Source: Ignavibacteria bacterium
GTDB lineage: Bacteria > Bacteroidota > Ignavibacteria > Kapaibacteriales > Kapaibacteriaceae
Reading direction: 5' to 3'
DNA length: 64,000 nt
Assembly (NCBI GenBank): GCA_015709655.1
Contig: CP054181.1
Coordinates: 2,708,207-2,772,206 of the forward strand
The first letter of the stretch is position 1. Every line of letters starts with the position of its first letter. The notes below the pieces were generated by a model that worked only from the letters and a program-made list of their open reading frames with translations, ran no database searches and had not been told where the DNA came from. Positions 570 to 64,000 of the stretch are shown piece after piece. Both the position numbers and the translations under genes were made by a program.

Positions 570-606
570 GTGCGTCCATCGACGCACGCGTTTTCATTCA
601 CTTTTT
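570..606 (+). terminator. rho-independent terminator-like hairpin after ileS
   Basis: Perfect 7-bp stem GTGCGTC(570-576)/GACGCAC(581-587) with 4-nt loop, followed by T-rich tract gcgTTTTcaTTcacTTTTTat. Confidence 0.5.
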
Positions 607-624
607 ATCGGAGGTTTATTTCTA

Positions 625-908
625 TGGCAGTTGCCAAGAAAGCCGCCAAGAAGCCAGCCGCCAAAAAGGCCGCTGCTCCTAAGAAGCCAGCCGCAAAGAA
701 GGCTGTTGCTAAGAAACCGGTAGCCAAGAAGGCTGCCGCTAAGAAGCCAGTAGCCAAGAAGGCTGCCGCTAAGAAGCCAGTAGCCAAGAAGGCCGCTGCT
801 AAGAAGCCAGTAGCCAAGAAAGCTGCTGCTAAGAAGCCGGTAGCCAAGAAAGCTGCCGCTAAGAAGCCAGTAGCTAAGAAAGCTGCTGCAAAAAAAAAAA
901 TGAGCTAG
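625..908 (+). CDS. histone H1-like lysine/alanine-rich DNA-binding protein ([10 protein letters not shown] repeats)
   Basis: ATG at 625 (track ORF starts upstream at 570 on an alternative start); protein is almost entirely (A-K-K-P/A-A/V) repeats, pI very basic; such H1/Hc1-like proteins are common in Bacteroidota/Chlorobi. Confidence 0.7.
691..890. repeat. 30-bp in-frame tandem repeat (approx 6 copies; unit tagccaagaaggctgccgctaagaagccag) inside H1-like CDS, ending in an A11 homopolymer (890-900)
   Basis: Near-identical 30-mers at 721,751,781,811,841 with degenerate flanking copies; seen directly in sequence. Confidence 0.85.
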
Positions 909-8923: not shown

Positions 8924-11317
8924 CTACTCAGACTTCTTTGTAACCGACTTTCTGGATGCAGGCTTTTTTGCGGCCGACTTCCTTGCAGCAGTCTTCTTTA
9001 CCGCACGTTCGGGTTTGGCTGGTGCCGATTCGGACTGTGATTCTGCCAGTGCCAAACACTCGGCAAGAGTAAGCGCTGCAGCATCAGTACCTTTTGGAAT
9101 TCGATAGTTGTCCTTACCAATTTTCAGAAACGGTCCCCAGCGTCCTTTTAGAATCTGCACATCAGGATTTTCATTAAATATTTTGATTAGACGTTCGGCA
9201 ACTGCTTTTTTCTTTGCCTCGATGAGTTCGATTGATCGTTCGATTGACACTGTTCCGGGATCTTCGCCTGATGGAATGGAGGCAAACATGCCGTTGTGTT
9301 CGATATACGGACCAAACCGTCCGATTTTCACGACTACGGGTTGTCCTTCGTAGTCACCAACAACGCGTGGAAAGCGGAACAACGCCAGAGCCTCTTCAAG
9401 AGTAACTGTTTCCATGCTCATTGCTGGAGCAAGGCCCTTTTGTTTTTTATCCGGATCATCAGAGTCGCCGATCTGTGCAATGGGTCCGTAGCGTGCCAGC
9501 CGGATTGTGACCGGTTTCCCGGTTTTGGGATCGGTACCCAGGTGACGTTCACCGCTCTGGCGTTCTGCCGTTGCCGACGTTTTGTCGAGAGTCTCTTTAA
9601 ACGGACCATAGAACGCCGAAATCATGGACTGCCACTGCAGCTTACCGTGAGCAATCTCGTCGAACTGCTTCTCTACGCTGGCGGTAAAATTATAGTCCAT
9701 AATTCCTTCAAAGTGAAGGAGAAGAAAATCAGTCACGATTGAGCCGATGCCGGTTGGAAAGAGTTTATTTCGTTCTTGCCCGGTATTCTCTGTTTTCACA
9801 ATACGCTGGATCTCGGAAGGGGCTATGGTCTCTGTATTAAGATTCAGCACTAATTCGCGAACCTCGCGTTGCTTGCCGTCGCGATCTTCTTTTACCACGT
9901 AATTCCGTGACTGTATCGTACCAATTGTTGGTGCATACGTGGATGGACGTCCGATACCAAGTTCTTCAAGTTTTTTAACAAGTGACGCCTCGGTGTATCG
10001 GGCTGGGGGGCGGGCGAACCGTTCCTGAGCCCGCACTGCCTGTGCATCCAGTTTCTCATCAACGGCAAGGGGTGGCAGCATCTTGGCATCTTCCTGGTCA
10101 TTCTCCTCGTCGGAACTTTCCATATACAAGTGCAGAAAACCATCAAATGCCAGCATTTCGCCCGTTGCCGTGAGTGTTTCCGGTGTTGTGCTGATACCAA
10201 TGGTTGCAACGGTTTTTTCCAAACGGGCATCTGCCATTTGTGAAGCAAGGGTACGCTTCCAGATCAGGTCGTACAGTTTTTTATGTGCTTCACTGGTTCC
10301 GGCACTTTTCTTTGACACATCGGTTGGCCGAATAGCTTCGTGAGCTTCCTGTGCGCTGGCCACGGTGGTGGTGTACCGGCGGGTTTGAACGTATTCGGCG
10401 CCAAAGGATGACCCAATGTACTCTGATGCGGCGCTAATGGCAACATCGGACAAATTCACTGAATCGGTTCGCATATAGGTAATGTGTCCGGCCTCGTACA
10501 AATCCTGAGCCAGCTTCATGGTACGTGCCAATGAATAGCCCAGTTTGCGTGAAGCTTCTTGTTGGAGTGTTGACGTGGTAAACGGCGCAGAGGGTGACTT
10601 CTTACCGGGTTTTATTTCCAGATTTTGCACATGGAACAAAGCCCCCTTACACTTCTCAAGGAAGGTACGGGCTTCGGTTTCGGTATCAAACCTTCGTGGA
10701 AGTTCGGCAGTAAATGACCTGCCGTTTTTCTGAAACTCGGCTTGAATTCTAAACTGAGAGGTTACCGTGAAGGCCTGAATTTCTCGTTCCCGTTCAACAA
10801 CCAGGCGGACGGCAACGCTTTGCACTCTGCCGGCCGAAAGGTTGCGCTGTACCTTGCGCCACAGCACCGGCGAAAGTCCAAAGCCAACCAGTCTGTCCAG
10901 AATTCTGCGTGCCTGTTGAGCATCAACCAGAGCTATGTCAACGCTACGGGGTTTTTCGACTGCCGCCTGAATTGCTTTCTTGGTGATCTCGTGGAACACA
11001 ATGCGCCGTACTTTTTGTGGTGGCAGTTCCAGCGCCTCCATCAGGTGCCATGCAATAGCCTCACCCTCGCGGTCTTCGTCAGTTGCCAGCCATATTGTTT
11101 CTGCCTTGGCGGCCTGCTTTTTCAGATCTGCGACGATTTTCTTTTTATCTGCCGTGACCTCGTATGTGGGAGTAAATCCATGTTCGATATCAATCGCCTT
11201 GTCGTTACCCGGCAGATCGCGGATATGTCCCATTGATGATGTGACAACAAAGTTGTCACCTAAGAACTTTTGAATTGTTTTGGCCTTACTCGGCGATTCT
11301 ACGATAACTAGATTCAT
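8924..11317 (-). CDS. topA: DNA topoisomerase I with C-terminal lysine-rich (histone-like) tail
   Basis: N-terminal MNLVIVESPSKAKTIQKFLG Toprim start, catalytic region, multiple C-terminal Zn-ribbon-like repeats, tail AKPERAVKKTAARKSAAKKPASRKSVTKKSE. Confidence 0.9.
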   Translation of the reverse strand: MNLVIVESPSKAKTIQKFLGDNFVVTSSMGHIRDLPGNDKAIDIEHGFTPTYEVTADKKKIVADLKKQAAKAETIWLATDEDREGEAIAWHLMEALELPPQKVRRIVFHEITKKAIQAAVEKPRSVDIALVDAQQARRILDRLVGFGLSPVLWRKVQRNLSAGRVQSVAVRLVVEREREIQAFTVTSQFRIQAEFQKNGRSFTAELPRRFDTETEARTFLEKCKGALFHVQNLEIKPGKKSPSAPFTTSTLQQEASRKLGYSLARTMKLAQDLYEAGHITYMRTDSVNLSDVAISAASEYIGSSFGAEYVQTRRYTTTVASAQEAHEAIRPTDVSKKSAGTSEAHKKLYDLIWKRTLASQMADARLEKTVATIGISTTPETLTATGEMLAFDGFLHLYMESSDEENDQEDAKMLPPLAVDEKLDAQAVRAQERFARPPARYTEASLVKKLEELGIGRPSTYAPTIGTIQSRNYVVKEDRDGKQREVRELVLNLNTETIAPSEIQRIVKTENTGQERNKLFPTGIGSIVTDFLLLHFEGIMDYNFTASVEKQFDEIAHGKLQWQSMISAFYGPFKETLDKTSATAERQSGERHLGTDPKTGKPVTIRLARYGPIAQIGDSDDPDKKQKGLAPAMSMETVTLEEALALFRFPRVVGDYEGQPVVVKIGRFGPYIEHNGMFASIPSGEDPGTVSIERSIELIEAKKKAVAERLIKIFNENPDVQILKGRWGPFLKIGKDNYRIPKGTDAAALTLAECLALAESQSESAPAKPERAVKKTAARKSAAKKPASRKSVTKKSE

Positions 11318-58751: not shown

Positions 58752-59782
58752 GGGGCTAAACCAATGATTCGGCAGTTTGTCGTAAACGGAATAGCAACAT
58801 CATAAAGTTTTTTTTCGGCAAACTCATCGAAAATCGTCAGTCGTGGCTCATCATGGTGAGTGCACATCAGCAGGGCGCGAGCTGCATCATACGAGCACAT
58901 GGTGTATGACTCGAACTGAACTGCGGCGGCACGTCGGGGTGTTCGGGTTTGAATCTGGAGCAGACCATTTTGAACAGGAACGTAGCAGTAGCCGCTACTG
59001 TTAACGGAAAGGCTGGAGGCAATTTGTAACGGGCCCTCAGAATCACGGGACGTAAGTGCAACGGTTGCCGTAATGGTCCGGGTACTCACATTGATCGTAG
59101 AGAGTGAAGGTACGGTAGGATCTTCGCCCTGAGATGCAGGCGTTTTTCCCTTGCCGAGTGAAACAACGCAGAACACGTTGTTCAACGGATCGCCCTCTAC
59201 CAAAGACGGAACGTCTGACGGAATATCCAGCCGTGCTTCGACCGTATTGGTCCGACTGTCGATAATGGCTACCTTGTTCTGATGTGGCAGTGCAACGCAA
59301 ATCTGATTCCCCAGGGCGGCAATACCTGCAGTTGAATCTCCAACAGAGATTGTACGTACGATCTGGAATACCGTAAGGTCAATAACGCCAACTGCCATGC
59401 TATCGGGTAATGAAACGTAGGCTGTTGTTGCATTGGCAAAGGCAATGTCGGCCGCATGGCCATACCCCGACAGACTGATCTCGGCTACGGCAGTAAGTGT
59501 CTCTCGGTTTAGGACGGTAATGCTTTCGGATTTTGTTAGCACGTAAATATCGTTGCGATACTGCCGAAGCTGCTGTACAGGGTATGCACCCAGGTCGGTG
59601 GTTGGCTTCCAGGTCTGATTCAGAACAGTCTGGTCAGGCATCGAGATCGTATAAAGCCCCGTAGGACCACTCAGCAGCAGACGCCATTTGCCATTAAACG
59701 AATTTATTAACGGCTCTTCAGGAGAACATGAAGAAAGTAGCAGCACACTGGTCAGGACCAATGCTGAAATCAGTCGGCTCAT
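58748..59782 (-). CDS. lipoprotein with beta-propeller-like repeats (YVTN-like)
   Basis: Signal peptide with lipobox LLSSC; repeated ~40-aa segments. Confidence 0.45.
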   Translation of the reverse strand: MSRLISALVLTSVLLLSSCSPEEPLINSFNGKWRLLLSGPTGLYTISMPDQTVLNQTWKPTTDLGAYPVQQLRQYRNDIYVLTKSESITVLNRETLTAVAEISLSGYGHAADIAFANATTAYVSLPDSMAVGVIDLTVFQIVRTISVGDSTAGIAALGNQICVALPHQNKVAIIDSRTNTVEARLDIPSDVPSLVEGDPLNNVFCVVSLGKGKTPASQGEDPTVPSLSTINVSTRTITATVALTSRDSEGPLQIASSLSVNSSGYCYVPVQNGLLQIQTRTPRRAAAVQFESYTMCSYDAARALLMCTHHDEPRLTIFDEFAEKKLYDVAIPFTTNCRIIGLAP

Positions 59783-60618
59783 TATTCACTCCTATCAGCA
59801 TGTTGAACAACATAGCGGATAATATCGGCAACAACAGGCTCTGCAATTGTAACTGCCTGAAGCATTTCTTCCAGCAACACCGGTTGTAACGAATCCGGAA
59901 AGCATTCATCGGTGATGATGCTTATGCCAAGCACCTTCATCCCCAGGTGGCGGGCAGCAATCACCTCGGGGACTGTACTCATCCCCACCACATCGGCACC
60001 AATTGTGCGCAGGAATCGGTACTCTGCCCTGGTTTCCAGGTTGGGTCCGCAGACTGCAACAAATACACCGCGGTGCACCCGATGCCTACCTTCCAGAGCC
60101 CCCTTTTCAGCAATTGTTAGCAAATGCTGCGAGTACGGCTCGCTCATATCCGGGAAGCGTGGACCAAACCGTTCATCGTTCGGGCCAACCAGCGGGCTTG
60201 TACCCAGCAGGTTAATATGATCGTCAATAAGCATAACATCGCCCCGGCGATATAAAGGGTTCATTCCGCCGCAGGCATTGCACACGATCAGTGTTTTTAC
60301 ACCCAACGCCCACATTACCCGAATAGGGTAGGCAATCTGCTGGAGTGAATACCCCTCATACATGTGAAACCGGCCCTGCATCACGCACACCGGTACACCA
60401 TCGAGCATACCGCTCACCAGACGTCCGGCATGCGACTCAACAGTACTCTCAGGGAAGAGTGGAATATCCTGATATGGTGTGCTGACGGGGTTGCTGATAT
60501 GCTCAACAAAGCCCCCCTGACCGGTCCCCAGAATAATACCAACGGTGGGTTGGATGCCAATTGTGTCCTTTACCAGACCGGCAGCCTTGATAACATCATC
60601 ATACGTGTGGTGATTCAT
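59782..60618 (-). CDS. punA: purine nucleoside phosphorylase (PNP-I family, punA-like)
   Basis: GRFHMYEGY, VGMSTVPE, NACGGMNP motifs identical in register to trimeric PNP; ATG (MNHHTY) at 60618 preferred over TTG at 60639. Confidence 0.8.
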   Translation of the reverse strand: MNHHTYDDVIKAAGLVKDTIGIQPTVGIILGTGQGGFVEHISNPVSTPYQDIPLFPESTVESHAGRLVSGMLDGVPVCVMQGRFHMYEGYSLQQIAYPIRVMWALGVKTLIVCNACGGMNPLYRRGDVMLIDDHINLLGTSPLVGPNDERFGPRFPDMSEPYSQHLLTIAEKGALEGRHRVHRGVFVAVCGPNLETRAEYRFLRTIGADVVGMSTVPEVIAARHLGMKVLGISIITDECFPDSLQPVLLEEMLQAVTIAEPVVADIIRYVVQHADRSE

Positions 60619-60794
60619 GGTGCGAAGATAGGGAAGCAATGGATGTCTTTGAGCGGCTCAGGACCCTGTACATATCGTCGGAATATTGAATTCAGTGATT
60701 CATGGATTAGGATGACACGTTCGGAGAGCTCAGGTAGCGAACCTAAGGGGCATATGGTCACGTTGTACTATCGTTCATGTACTATCTACAAAAG

Positions 60795-62188
60795 CAATTG
60801 CTCCAGAGTTTTGTCATGATCATTACGTAGGCTGCACACCGCAGCCGACTGGCCGAGCTATAGTGGTAGGTGGTGATGCACGATGGTGGTGGAGGTGGGG
60901 GTGGGGCCCGGAGGGCCGTAGTCCGTCTGTTTGGGATTTATGACGTGCCTCGGTAGTGCATAAGGTTTGTGTTAAACCGTAATGTGGGTATGAAACCCCG
61001 TAGGAACGAACCCACGTGGTGGCCCGCACGAAACACCATATAAAACCCGATACGAAACTGTACGAACGTGGTCACACTTCACTGTCATTGACACACTCTC
61101 TATCACAGCAATTGCTCCGGAATTCCTAATGTGTTTTACGTAGGCTGCGCAACGCAGCCGACCGGCCGAGCTGTGCAGGTAGGTGGTAACGCACGATGGT
61201 GGTGGAGGCGGGGGTGGGGCCCGGAGGGCCGTAGTCCGTCCGTTCGGGATTTATGCCGTGCCTCGGTAGTGCAGAACGGTTGTGTTAAACCGTAATGTGG
61301 GTATGAAACCCCGTATGAACGACCCCATGTCGTCGCCCACACGAAACATTATAAAACCCGATACGAAACTGTACGAACGTGGTCACACTTCACTGTCATT
61401 GACACACTCTCTATCACAGCAATTGCTCCGGAATTCCTAAGGTGTTTTACGTAGGCTGCACACCGCAGCCGACCGGCCGAGCTGTACTGGTAGGTGGTAA
61501 CGCACGATGGTGGTGGAGGTGGGGGTGGGGCCCGGAGGGCCGTAGTCCGTCCGTTCGGGATTTATGACGTGCCTCGGTAGTGCATAAGGTTTGTGTTATA
61601 CCGTAATGTGGGGATGAAACACCGTAGGAACGACCCCATGTCGTCGCCCACACGAAACATTATAAAACCCGATACGAAACTGTACGAACGTGGTCACACT
61701 TCACTGTCATTGACACACTCTCTATCACAGCAATTGCTCCGGAATTCCTAATGTGTTTTACGTAGGCTGCGCAACGCAGCCGACCGGCCGAGCTGTGCAG
61801 GTAGGTGGTAACGCACGATGGTGGTGGAGGCGGGGGTGGGACCCGGGGGGCCGTAGTCCGTCCGTTCGGGATTTATGCCGTGCCTCGGTAGTGCAGAACG
61901 GTTGTGTTAAACCGTAATGTGGGTATGAAACCCCGTATGAACGACCCCATGTCGTCGCCCACACGAAACATTATAAAACCCGATACGAAACTGTACGAAC
62001 GTGGTCACACTTCACTGTCATTGACACACTCTCTATCACAGCAATTGCTCCGGAATTCCTAAGGTGTTTTACGTAGGCTGCACACCGCAGCCGACCGGCC
62101 GAGCTGTACTGGTAGGTGGTAACGCACGATGGTGGTGGAGGTGGGGGTGGGGCCCGGAGGGCCGTAGTCCGTCCGTTCGGGATTTATG
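60795..62188. repeat. tandem array of a 311-bp unit, 4.5 copies, copies alternating between two sequence subtypes (A-B-A-B-A)
   Basis: Unit starts (caattgctcc...) at 60795, 61109, 61420, 61731, 62042; period 311 (first 314); subtype-specific substitutions recur in alternate copies (loop ACACC vs GCAAC in a conserved GGCTGC..GCAGCC hairpin; atgacgtg/ataaggtttg vs atgccgtg/agaacggttg); each copy has G-run ggtggtggaggtgggggtgggg and several 5-7 bp hairpins; fifth copy truncated at ~62188. Confidence 0.9.
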
Positions 62189-62379
62189 CCGTGGCTCAGT
62201 CATACAGCATGTTTGCCGTGGCTCAGTGATACAGCATGTTTGCCGTGGCTCAGTGATACAGCATGGTTGCCGTGGCTCAGTGATACAGCATGTTTGCCGT
62301 GGCTCAGTGATACAGCATGTTTGCCGTGGCTCAGTCATACAGCATGTTTGCCGTGGCTCGGTCGTACAGCATGTTTGCC
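62189..62379. repeat. 27-bp minisatellite (7 copies; unit ccgtggctcagtgatacagcatgtttg) contiguous with the truncated fifth 311-bp unit
   Basis: Head-to-tail copies with no spacers; unit is ~70% identical to the 27-nt segment ccgtgcctcggtagtgcagaacggttg of the 311-bp unit at the equivalent position. Confidence 0.9.
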
Positions 62380-62671
62380 GGACTAGGGAGCTGTAAATAA
62401 TATTAAAACAACAGTGATATCATAAGGCCCTACTGTGTGGCAACCCCGCGTGGCTGCTCTGCATTAAACAGCATAAAAAGGACTAAACCGTAAGGGTGCG
62501 GAACAAGGTGCGGGTTTCAAACCCGTCCCGAGGTAATATTCAATTGAGTCGAAACTGTGGAGAGTGTATTCCATGAGCTCGATCCTTTGAAAGTAAAACA
62601 CAAACCGGTTACACGACGGTAAGCCCTTTATTTAGCCGGTTCATCATCCCCCATACCACACCCCTCTTTCT

Positions 62672-62679
62672 TATTTTTG
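62672..62679 (+). promoter_or_regulatory. candidate -7 box TAttTTTG 13 nt upstream of the TPR-like gene ATG
   Basis: TAnnTTTG match. Confidence 0.3.
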
Positions 62680-62692
62680 CAATGCAGCTACC

Positions 62693-64000
62693 ATGGGGAA
62701 ATCTTATATACGAAATCTGTGTGGCAGAATGTTTGCATTCTGCTGTTTCCTGATATACTTCCTGCCGTGTTATGCACAGCAGGGGAGATACCCGTACCTT
62801 CCGTTGGAGACTGTGGAGCAGGTTGCGGACGTTTGGCAGTCAGACGGGCTGTTGCGCAGGTCTGCCGATGTACTGGATGAATTTCGAGACTCAGAGGTCC
62901 GCTCGGGAAGTGACGCCCTACGAATGAGTCGTGCCGAGCTCGAACGTGCTTCAGGCTTGCCAAAGAGTTCGGACCGGAGTCTGATGGTGTTCCTGCAGGG
63001 GCGCAGCAACTCGCCCTTCTTCCCCATTGCAATGTCGGCACGTGGCTTTCTGGCGCTGTCGGAGGCCCGATATAGTCAGGCTGACAGCTTGCTCCATACT
63101 GCTGCATTGCGTGCGCAGCACGATTACGTTGTCCGCCGTGATACCCAATACCGTACTCTTGCACAACATGCCTACTTCTGGGATGGTGTGGCTCTGGGCA
63201 GGATGCAGAAGTTTGACAGTGCAATCGTGCGGTTTGCGGCTTGTATAGCCACCGATTCGTTGGGGAGCCTGGCTCCTCGTGCGCTGTTTGCCATGGGCCA
63301 AATGTATGAGCGGCTGGCTGTGACAAACAAAGCTTCCGAAGCCTACTCAACAATTCGGAAAAAGTACAGGACTGGAAATATTATCGTGGCAGCCCGGATC
63401 AGGGAGGCACAGATTGCGTTGCGGCAACGGATGCCTGAGCGTGCCGTTGACATCCTTGGCGGGATTGATGCAGAGATCCTGAGTCTTTCCGCTGGAGACA
63501 GTTTGTTGCCGTTTCCGATATCGGAGGCTGTCGGACAAGTTCGAATCCTGCGTACAAATGCACTGATCATGCGCGGAGGTTTTGCCGAAGCCCTGGATTC
63601 TGCTACTGCATATTTACGGGAATCGCCTCCCGACAGAAACGTACCGCTGGTTAGACTTCAAAGTGCGTTCTGTATGCTGAATCTTGACTCGTCGGACGAC
63701 GCATTACTGCATCTTGATAAAATTATTGATCAGGTAACCGACGATGCCTCGCCCATACGTCAGCAGGCATTGCTCTACCGCGCCTTGGCCCTGCGTCAGA
63801 GTGGTATGCCCGAAAAAGCAGTTGCTGACTTTACCTACCTTGCGGCCCTGGCCGGATATCCGTATCAGGCTCAGGCTCTGGTGGAGGTTGGCCAAGCAGC
63901 CTATCAGCGTGGCGACATGGAGGCTACGATTAGGGCCGTTGACCGTGCTGAGAAATTAAGTACCGATGCGCAGACAACGATCCGCTCACAGTTGCTGCTG
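62693..64000 (+). CDS. secreted TPR/alpha-helical repeat-like protein, N-terminal part (>435 aa; runs off window end; absent from supplied ORF track)
   Basis: Manual translation from ATG 62693 is stop-free to nt 64000; N-terminal signal peptide MGKSYIRNLCGRMFAFCCFLIYFLPCYAQQ; alanine/leucine-rich helical repeats (...AAYQRGDMEATIRAVDRAEKL...) suggest TPR-like fold; the overlapping 221-aa minus-strand track ORF (62688..63353) is likely spurious. Confidence 0.55.
   Translation, partial: MGKSYIRNLCGRMFAFCCFLIYFLPCYAQQGRYPYLPLETVEQVADVWQSDGLLRRSADVLDEFRDSEVRSGSDALRMSRAELERASGLPKSSDRSLMVFLQGRSNSPFFPIAMSARGFLALSEARYSQADSLLHTAALRAQHDYVVRRDTQYRTLAQHAYFWDGVALGRMQKFDSAIVRFAACIATDSLGSLAPRALFAMGQMYERLAVTNKASEAYSTIRKKYRTGNIIVAARIREAQIALRQRMPERAVDILGGIDAEILSLSAGDSLLPFPISEAVGQVRILRTNALIMRGGFAEALDSATAYLRESPPDRNVPLVRLQSAFCMLNLDSSDDALLHLDKIIDQVTDDASPIRQQALLYRALALRQSGMPEKAVADFTYLAALAGYPYQAQALVEVGQAAYQRGDMEATIRAVDRAEKLSTDAQTTIRSQLLL

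Follow-up and report, generated by a model that had tools for sequence, protein, structure and literature searches.

At the end of the window, by which we mean the whole stretch of 64,000 nt that was analyzed, a gene for purine-nucleoside phosphorylase (PNP) and a gene for a large TPR-repeat protein enclose a divergent intergenic region of 2.07 kb. The PNP gene (59782..60618, minus strand) forms the left border and was assigned from the ORF list and Pfam PF01048. Exactly the same protein is encoded in Kapabacteria OLB6 assemblies, including GCA_001567175.1 and the closed genome CP129493.1. The right border is formed by the TPR gene, of which the window contains the start portion (62693..64000, plus strand) and whose product has 1034–1046 aa in two public assemblies, L001 and L002. 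A protein search with the partial N-terminus of the TPR protein gave no scoring sequence among 8000 candidates. Among the window, L001 and L002, only 1–2 differences were counted in 10.8 kb of flanking sequence, which makes them near-clonal. Elsewhere in the window, positions 570–908 (plus strand) encode a small Lys/Ala-rich protein, in which a motif is repeated about 8 times due to a 30/90-bp coding tandem repeat (628–896); in character it resembles histone-H1-like proteins or other basic repeat proteins.

Two related Kapabacteria (PNP 66%–68% identical; the nearest non-identical PNP shares 68%) keep the gene order. In both, the gap between the TPR and PNP genes is occupied by a rhodanese/UPF0176 (TrhO-like) gene (L045, 9014–9976; L047, 3326–4210), with spacers of a few tens of bases to about 100 bp around it. 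The repeat family described below was absent from the ~40 kb of these relatives' loci, and a tblastn search found no rhodanese remnant in the gap of the window (60619–62692). Since the relatives have the gene at this place without the repeats and no remnant was found here, we concluded that the repeat cluster is a lineage-specific replacement of the rhodanese gene.

The gap harbors a 311-bp tandem repeat, which Tandem Repeats Finder (TRF) placed at 60823–62197 with 4.4 copies and 93% matches. In the natural phase of the array, each unit opens with GTCAC(A/G). Element E1 (60757..61070, plus strand) has 314 bp, opens with GTCACG and is the most diverged full copy. It is followed on the same strand by E2, E3 and E4 (61071..62003), which begin at 61071, 61382 and 61693, comprise the full 311 bp each and alternate between types B and A. 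The 5′ part of a fifth element, E5 (62004..62186, plus strand), extends up to ...GGGATTTATG and is then interrupted by a minisatellite. Over its first 189 nt, which reach into the first bases of the minisatellite, E5 is 99.5% identical to E3. The identity matrix revealed that units two apart are more similar (99.4%) than neighbors (~95%), and a 622-bp higher-order repeat is therefore real. The alternation of A and B monomers and the lower homogenization at the edges resemble the higher-order repeats of eukaryotic satellites, but here only ~4.5 monomers are present, in a bacterial intergenic region. A CRISPR array was ruled out, as the repeats abut without unique spacers and the 311-bp units are ~95%–99% identical over their full length.

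The 27-bp minisatellite (62187..62380, plus strand) consists of seven full copies, starting at 62187, 62214, 62241, 62268, 62295, 62322 and 62349, and a final TGCCG. TRF assigned it a period of 27 bp with 7.2 copies and 96% matches. It begins inside the fifth 311-bp unit, immediately 3′ of ...GGGATTTATG, and its units abut head-to-tail without spacers, as is the rule for VNTRs and minisatellites (contiguous units of 10–100 bp). TRF and the listing of copies thus agree with the initial annotation, in which seven 27-bp copies started where the fifth 311-bp copy is interrupted. The nested hierarchy of 27, 311 and 622 bp proposed there needs a restriction: the 622-bp order exists, but the 27-bp repeat occurs in a single, terminal unit. 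With up to 3 mismatches, the consensus 27-mer matched seven times in the 64-kb window, always in the array, with 0 matches expected from shuffles; copies unconnected to the array, which the initial annotation had regarded as speaking against its view, do not occur in the window. Viral, plasmid and phage collections contained nothing that matched the unit, the core or the 27-mer. The minisatellite folds less well than its shuffled versions (z = +1.27).

To relate the 27-mer to the 311-bp unit, we placed each of its 27 rotations, on either strand, at every offset along units of types A and B (~33,000 possibilities). The best ungapped placement was rotation 0 on the plus strand at unit position 118, which is the in-register segment. 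This 27-nt segment, TGCCGTGCCTCGGTAGTGCAGAACGGT, is found, for example, at 61254..61280 (plus strand) and also at 60941, 61565 and 61876. The consensus 27-mer matches it at 19/27 positions, exactly the figure given earlier as approximate, and only 17 of 2000 shuffles reached 19 at any place. The last copy (62349–62375) matches at 21/27 positions, which was achieved by none of the 2000 shuffles. At the in-register positions past the junction, 12–14 of 20 match (binomial P 9e-4 to 3e-5). A family HMM built from other loci, without any window sequence, aligned the minisatellite to the same segment (HMM positions 178–216, E 3e-4). Both the shuffled control and the independent HMM support the derivation of the 27-mer from the segment at the same position in full units. 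The suggestion that this segment forms an ACGGTT/AACCGT hairpin held in part: it carries the 5′ arm ACGGTT, in B-type units only, and the 3′ arm is absent.

The copies of the minisatellite are graded in their distance from the source segment. Copy 7 (62349–62375), CTCGGTCGTACAG, is nearest to the source segment in the form CTCGGTAGTGCAG. Copies 1 and 6 (CTCAGTCATACAG) are intermediate, and copies 2–5 (CTCAGTGATACAG) are furthest from it. Such a gradient, with the edges nearest to the source and the center most derived, is expected if the middle of the array turns over fastest. The source segment is flanked by short TG/TTG microhomologies, TTTATG|CCGTG... on one side and ...GGTTTG|TG on the other.

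We considered whether the likeness of the 27-mer to the unit could be due to chance, or whether the whole structure could be an artefact of assembling a repeat-rich region. The short-read assemblies L003–L008 do break within the 311-bp array or probably mis-join across it, the contigs of L005–L008 ending within the array. In addition, the 311-bp array differs by 1%–2% between the near-clonal assemblies (the window, L001 and L002), which could partly represent consensus errors, while their minisatellites and spacers are identical; the flanks of these genomes are 99.98%–99.99% identical. Otherwise, the array differences would be the result of rapid conversion among units. A chance match is opposed by the placement in the exact predicted register, by the failure of all 2000 shuffles to equal the last copy and by the choice of the same segment by the independent HMM. 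The minisatellite and both of its flanks are the same, base for base, in three independent assemblies, one of which is a complete genome, and thus the minisatellite is not an assembly artefact. Taken together, chance or artefact is highly improbable as an explanation.

The 311-bp unit is not confined to this locus. In the megahit contigs L003 and L004, the PNP-side array passes through diverged unit copies into unrelated loci, which shows that the unit is dispersed. The joins in L003 and L004 (locus ~9000–9800, upstream of the PNP gene) lead to the 3′ end of an RF-1 gene and a tRNA-flanked region; either the assembler created chimeras at the repeat, or dispersed copies have truly recombined. 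A scan with the G-rich core recovered at least 22 copies of a conserved module at no fewer than 8 loci in 12 contigs from two metagenomes together with L013. The same core pattern, when scanned against genome contigs, marked 24 loci, with no Kapabacteria genome among them. Among these, L013 (WBUF01000097.1, 3306–3469) proved to be genuine: a family copy (E 3.6e-37) terminates this 3.5-kb contig, which was assigned to a Rhodocyclaceae MAG, probably by mis-binning. L017 was marginal (E 7e-4), and the other 22 loci, which contained no family copy, seem to have matched by chance in genomes of high GC content.

The 311-bp unit represents a single, complete copy of a mosaic element that is dispersed and specific to the Kapabacteria OLB6 lineage. 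The element is laid out as a conserved module of ~240 nt followed by REP-like palindromes tagged with GTAG. The module starts with GTCACA and a variable stretch of ~30 nt. A perfect 10-bp palindrome follows, AGCAATTGCT in most copies but replaced by another palindrome, TGTGATCACA, in a single subfamily member, and after it a hairpin, GTAG-GCTGCG-N3-CGCAGC. The module continues with a G-rich run, GGCCC-GRA-GGGCC, GTAGTCCGTCCG, and then the segment that became the minisatellite. The first type of REP-like palindrome, REP-a, is GTAG-GGGCGACC-N6-GGTCGCCC; ~35 of ~45 copies are directly preceded by GTAG, the tag being CGTAGG in 29, with variants besides. The second, REP-b, is GGGCGGAT-N3-ATCCGCCC. 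Both hairpins occur in L013 and in L033–L042, and degenerate forms are found in every unit of the window. In E2–E4 the degenerate GTAG-type hairpins lie at 61305–61378, 61615–61689 and 61927–62000 (REP HMM, E 1.5e-9 to 1.9e-8). Since the REP HMM, which was built from other loci, matched every full unit of the window (E 1.5e-9 to 3.8e-7), each 311-bp unit here corresponds to one complete mosaic element, that is, the module and one degenerate REP. A GC-rich repeat, CCCTCCCTAAAGCCCGAAGGGGTTTGGGGAGGGGG..., is located directly 5′ of some elements (L040, 7100–7160; L042, 1–462) and in L042 forms a 228-bp tandem of two copies.

In the passages that define the class in PMC3733652 and PMC2817692, GTAG-type REPs are described as short GC-rich palindromes with a GTAG tetranucleotide at one end. 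The account of their distribution in PMC3733652 assigns CGTC-type REPs to Chlorobi and Bacteroidetes and describes GTAG repeats for Proteobacteria and Cyanobacteria. The palindromes of the OLB6 family agree with that definition (Nunvar 2010, PMC2817692; Di Nocera 2013, PMC3733652), being short (20–40 bp), GC-rich and imperfect with GTAG at the 5′ end. They may also resemble REPs and BIMEs in occurring in many copies and in being extragenic, as they are in the loci sampled, and they are similarly clustered in composite mosaic arrays with other conserved motifs. About 45 hairpins were counted in ~100 kb of loci, all outside long ORFs; these loci had been chosen for carrying the family. At other loci the palindromes are arranged head-to-tail in arrays whose periods are 58, 92 and 113–121 bp, and the elements are mostly found 3′ of genes or between convergent genes, a further likeness to REPs. 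Unlike in BIMEs, the hairpins do not alternate in orientation; REP-a and REP-b have GTAG on the same strand and are direct repeats. The ~240-nt module with its G-rich core and 10-bp palindrome has no REP counterpart, and the host, a Kapabacterium, is another difference.

REPs are the insertion target of IS1397, and the OLB6 family has likewise been hit by an IS3-family insertion. The transposase (rve, HTH_21; L043, 843–1799, plus strand) sits inside the conserved module and is bounded by inverted copies of TGGTCC...AAAAGTGGACAC. Similar IS ends break two other module copies (junctions at L035 ~13285 and L043 ~1818). By analogy with IS1397 on REPs, this suggests that the repeat family is targeted by the IS. 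A cognate RAYT gene (a Y1 HUH transposase) flanked by REPs belongs to the defining features of GTAG-type REPs. The ORFs scanned beside the repeats contained no Y1_Tnp; an IS3 transposase, DUF2975, a deaminase and GIY-YIG were found.

Because the other units contain no counterpart of the minisatellite, the 311/622-bp homogenization ends there. A degenerate REP-a-like module, GGCAACCCCGCGTGGCTGC... (62439..62488, plus strand), which is probably the decayed 3′ part of E5, lies 63 nt past the minisatellite in the right orientation. It was the top non-array match of the REP HMM in the window, with an E value of 0.058 window-wide, below the inclusion threshold; in the 313-nt spacer on the plus strand, ~1.4e-4 chance matches would be expected. 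The same REP was part of the alignment to the unit HMM, and blastn matched it weakly to REP arrays in L038 and L041. The 58 nt that separate this degenerate REP from the array did not align to the repeat family, and the module HMM had no match in the spacer when the array was masked. Judged from these similarities, E5 is probably an old complete element in which an internal 27-nt segment expanded and the 3′ part decayed. The initial annotation had let the fifth copy break off at the minisatellite. The unit is indeed interrupted there, but with a degenerate REP 3′ of the array this is probably an internal expansion. A small palindrome further downstream, GCGGGTTTCAAACCCGT (62506..62530), is also present beside family repeats in L034 and L033, and blastn gave 96% identity over 25 nt to L034 (E 1.5e-5).

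Arrays of related elements with the layout GTCACA / GCAATTGC / G-rich core are located at L039 (2014–4024), L033 (6439–7778) and L042 (10393–12497), the long arrays having 6.5 copies of 267 bp and 7.7 copies of 277 bp. The 267-bp array of L039 has the same architecture and ends in a truncated unit just past the G-rich core. This unit is followed by a minisatellite of 6.8 copies of 32 bp, ~250 nt upstream of a sulfatase gene. In the orthologous L033, which is ~94%–96% identical to L039, the 32-bp minisatellite has 2.2 copies. There was no support for an origin of the L039 32-mer in its 267-bp unit, as 820 of 1000 shuffles scored just as well. A truncated unit with a ~7-copy minisatellite of 27–32 bp upstream of a gene was thus seen twice, here and in L039, and this parallel hints that the arrangement of array plus minisatellite may not be purely accidental.

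All three plus-strand frames and one minus-strand frame are open through the minisatellite, and the repeat could code for the 9-residue peptide CRGSVIQHV within an ORF of 110 aa with a GTG start (62064–62396). In the frame of this ORF, 2 of the 4 distinct substitutions among the copies are synonymous, a ratio that has no statistical weight. The N-terminal 40 residues of the ORF correspond to the conserved module, which in other copies has stops (ORFs of 41–54 aa) and whose family copies differ by indels of 1, 2 and 6 nt. No gene was called in the gap in L001 or L002, and the ORFs over the array, including this one, had no Pfam match. A coding function for the 27-bp repeat is accordingly very unlikely, and the missing gene calls in two assemblies, the lack of a Pfam match and the frame-breaking indels between family copies bear out the non-coding reading of the initial annotation.

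A known RNA was not recognized either. The only Rfam match above the gathering threshold in the whole window was one tRNA, a permissive Rfam search of 60500–62800 gave only sub-threshold miRNA models (E ≥ 1.2), and the 12 family loci yielded only 5S rRNA and tRNA. Scans for sigma-70-type promoters and for terminators stayed at background level. A replication origin was dropped after an informal look by eye for DnaA boxes. The consensus of the module is predicted to fold better on the plus strand (−38.8 kcal/mol), which is G-rich, than on the minus strand (−26.4 kcal/mol). In the predicted fold, 95% of the cells are paired and 7 pairs are changed on both sides, compared with 3.2 expected (8 of 500 shuffles). 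Since the structure was predicted from the same alignment and the plus strand is G-rich, pairing and covariation are no more than a suggestive structure signal; given this signal on the plus strand, the conserved module or the element may have a function. The module could then be a new functional element of Kapabacteria, either a structured RNA of the G-rich strand or a protein-binding site, and the architecture of array plus minisatellite would be recurrent and regulatory. The features behind such a proposal are the GTCACA start, a palindrome that keeps its symmetry (AGCAATTGCT versus TGTGATCACA), the conserved hairpin and the G-rich core with the subsequent GC hairpin. We consider this unlikely.

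The motif TAnnTTTG occurs 23 times in the window, in 10 cases on the gene strand and no more than 100 nt before a crude gene start; the 100-nt stretches preceding genes are enriched for it ~12-fold. Owing to this enrichment, Bacteroidetes-type −7 promoter boxes are probably in use in the Kapabacterium. The minisatellite might then act as a cis-element, with iteron-like binding sites or overlapping weak promoters facing the TPR gene, whose start is 313 nt 3′ of it. Through the 27-bp period, unit after unit has a TTTG exactly 19 nt before a cATGTTTG, a spacing that mimics the Bacteroidetes-type arrangement of −33 TTTG, N19 and −7 TAnnTTTG, and the array contains four TTTG-N19-nAnnTTTG arrangements. 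In promoters of this type, the TAnnTTTG box follows the TTTG at 19–21 nt. The related array of L039 also ends in a minisatellite before a same-strand gene, as described above.

However, the minisatellite offers only TTTG-N19-CAtgTTTG, in which C replaces the conserved first T of the −7-like box, and a perfect box is present in none of the units. No TAnnTTTG was found in the family module copies on either strand. The TTTG was inherited from the source segment (GGTTTG), and the match was noticed post hoc; ~2%–3% of random 27-mers would have it. The TPR gene has a perfect TAnnTTTG box of its own, TATTTTTG (62672..62679, plus strand), 21 nt upstream of its ATG, which we take to be its likely promoter box of the Bacteroidetes-type −7 class. 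The 32-mer of L039 lacks such a motif, and its reduction to 2.2 copies in the orthologous L033 reveals no constraint. A role of the minisatellite as a cis-element is therefore improbable, though less so than a coding function.

The minisatellite is best explained as the neutral product of slippage or unequal exchange in a terminal member of a new mosaic family that is REP-like and lineage-specific. We give a probability of roughly three in four to the reading that it is non-coding and goes back to a 27-nt segment that was duplicated in tandem within the last, oldest copy of the element and then expanded to seven copies. The first duplication would probably have occurred by slipped-strand mispairing between the TG/TTG microhomologies that flank the segment, and slippage is a plausible mechanism in view of these flanks. 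Further slippage or unequal exchange may have driven the later expansion to seven copies. The order of these events and the lack of function are what we infer from the pattern of repeats. The element of the OLB6 lineage readily undergoes local tandem amplification, and on more than one scale: 27 bp at this locus, pairs of REPs of 58–121 bp elsewhere, and whole elements of 311 and 622 bp here.

In several respects the array behaves like a bacterial VNTR. Its 27-bp units are arranged head-to-tail without spacers, are 96% alike and intergenic, and the edge copies are more diverged than the central ones; the related 32-bp array has 6.8 versus 2.2 copies between populations. Copy number, which in a typical VNTR differs between strains, was the same in the three near-clonal genomes compared, which are too alike to give this comparison any power. 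Unusually for a VNTR, the progenitor segment of the 27-mer is still recognizable in the adjacent paralogous units. The BOX element of Streptococcus pneumoniae is modular (boxA-boxB(n)-boxC), with an internal module that is reiterated variably. The OLB6 element may be seen as analogous, as it is dispersed, modular and intergenic with an internal module in tandem reiteration. It has no sequence relation to BOX, however, and the reiterated modules vary by locus (the 27-bp segment, REP pairs or whole elements).

The minisatellite thus appears to be a commonplace consequence of unstable repeats rather than a new device, and it has no demonstrated function. It is an unusually clean bacterial case, in which the progenitor of a minisatellite is still legible in the neighboring paralogous units and one dispersed element bears three tandem levels of 27, 311 and 622 bp. 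The repeat family also has practical consequences, as it breaks, and probably mis-joins, the short-read assemblies (L003–L008) of a common, uncultured anammox-reactor bacterium and has probably contaminated a MAG from a different phylum (L013). Through this family, the range of GTAG-tagged REP-like repeats grows to include Kapabacteria, and a lineage-specific marker becomes available. If the conserved module were functional, it would represent a new class of non-coding element.
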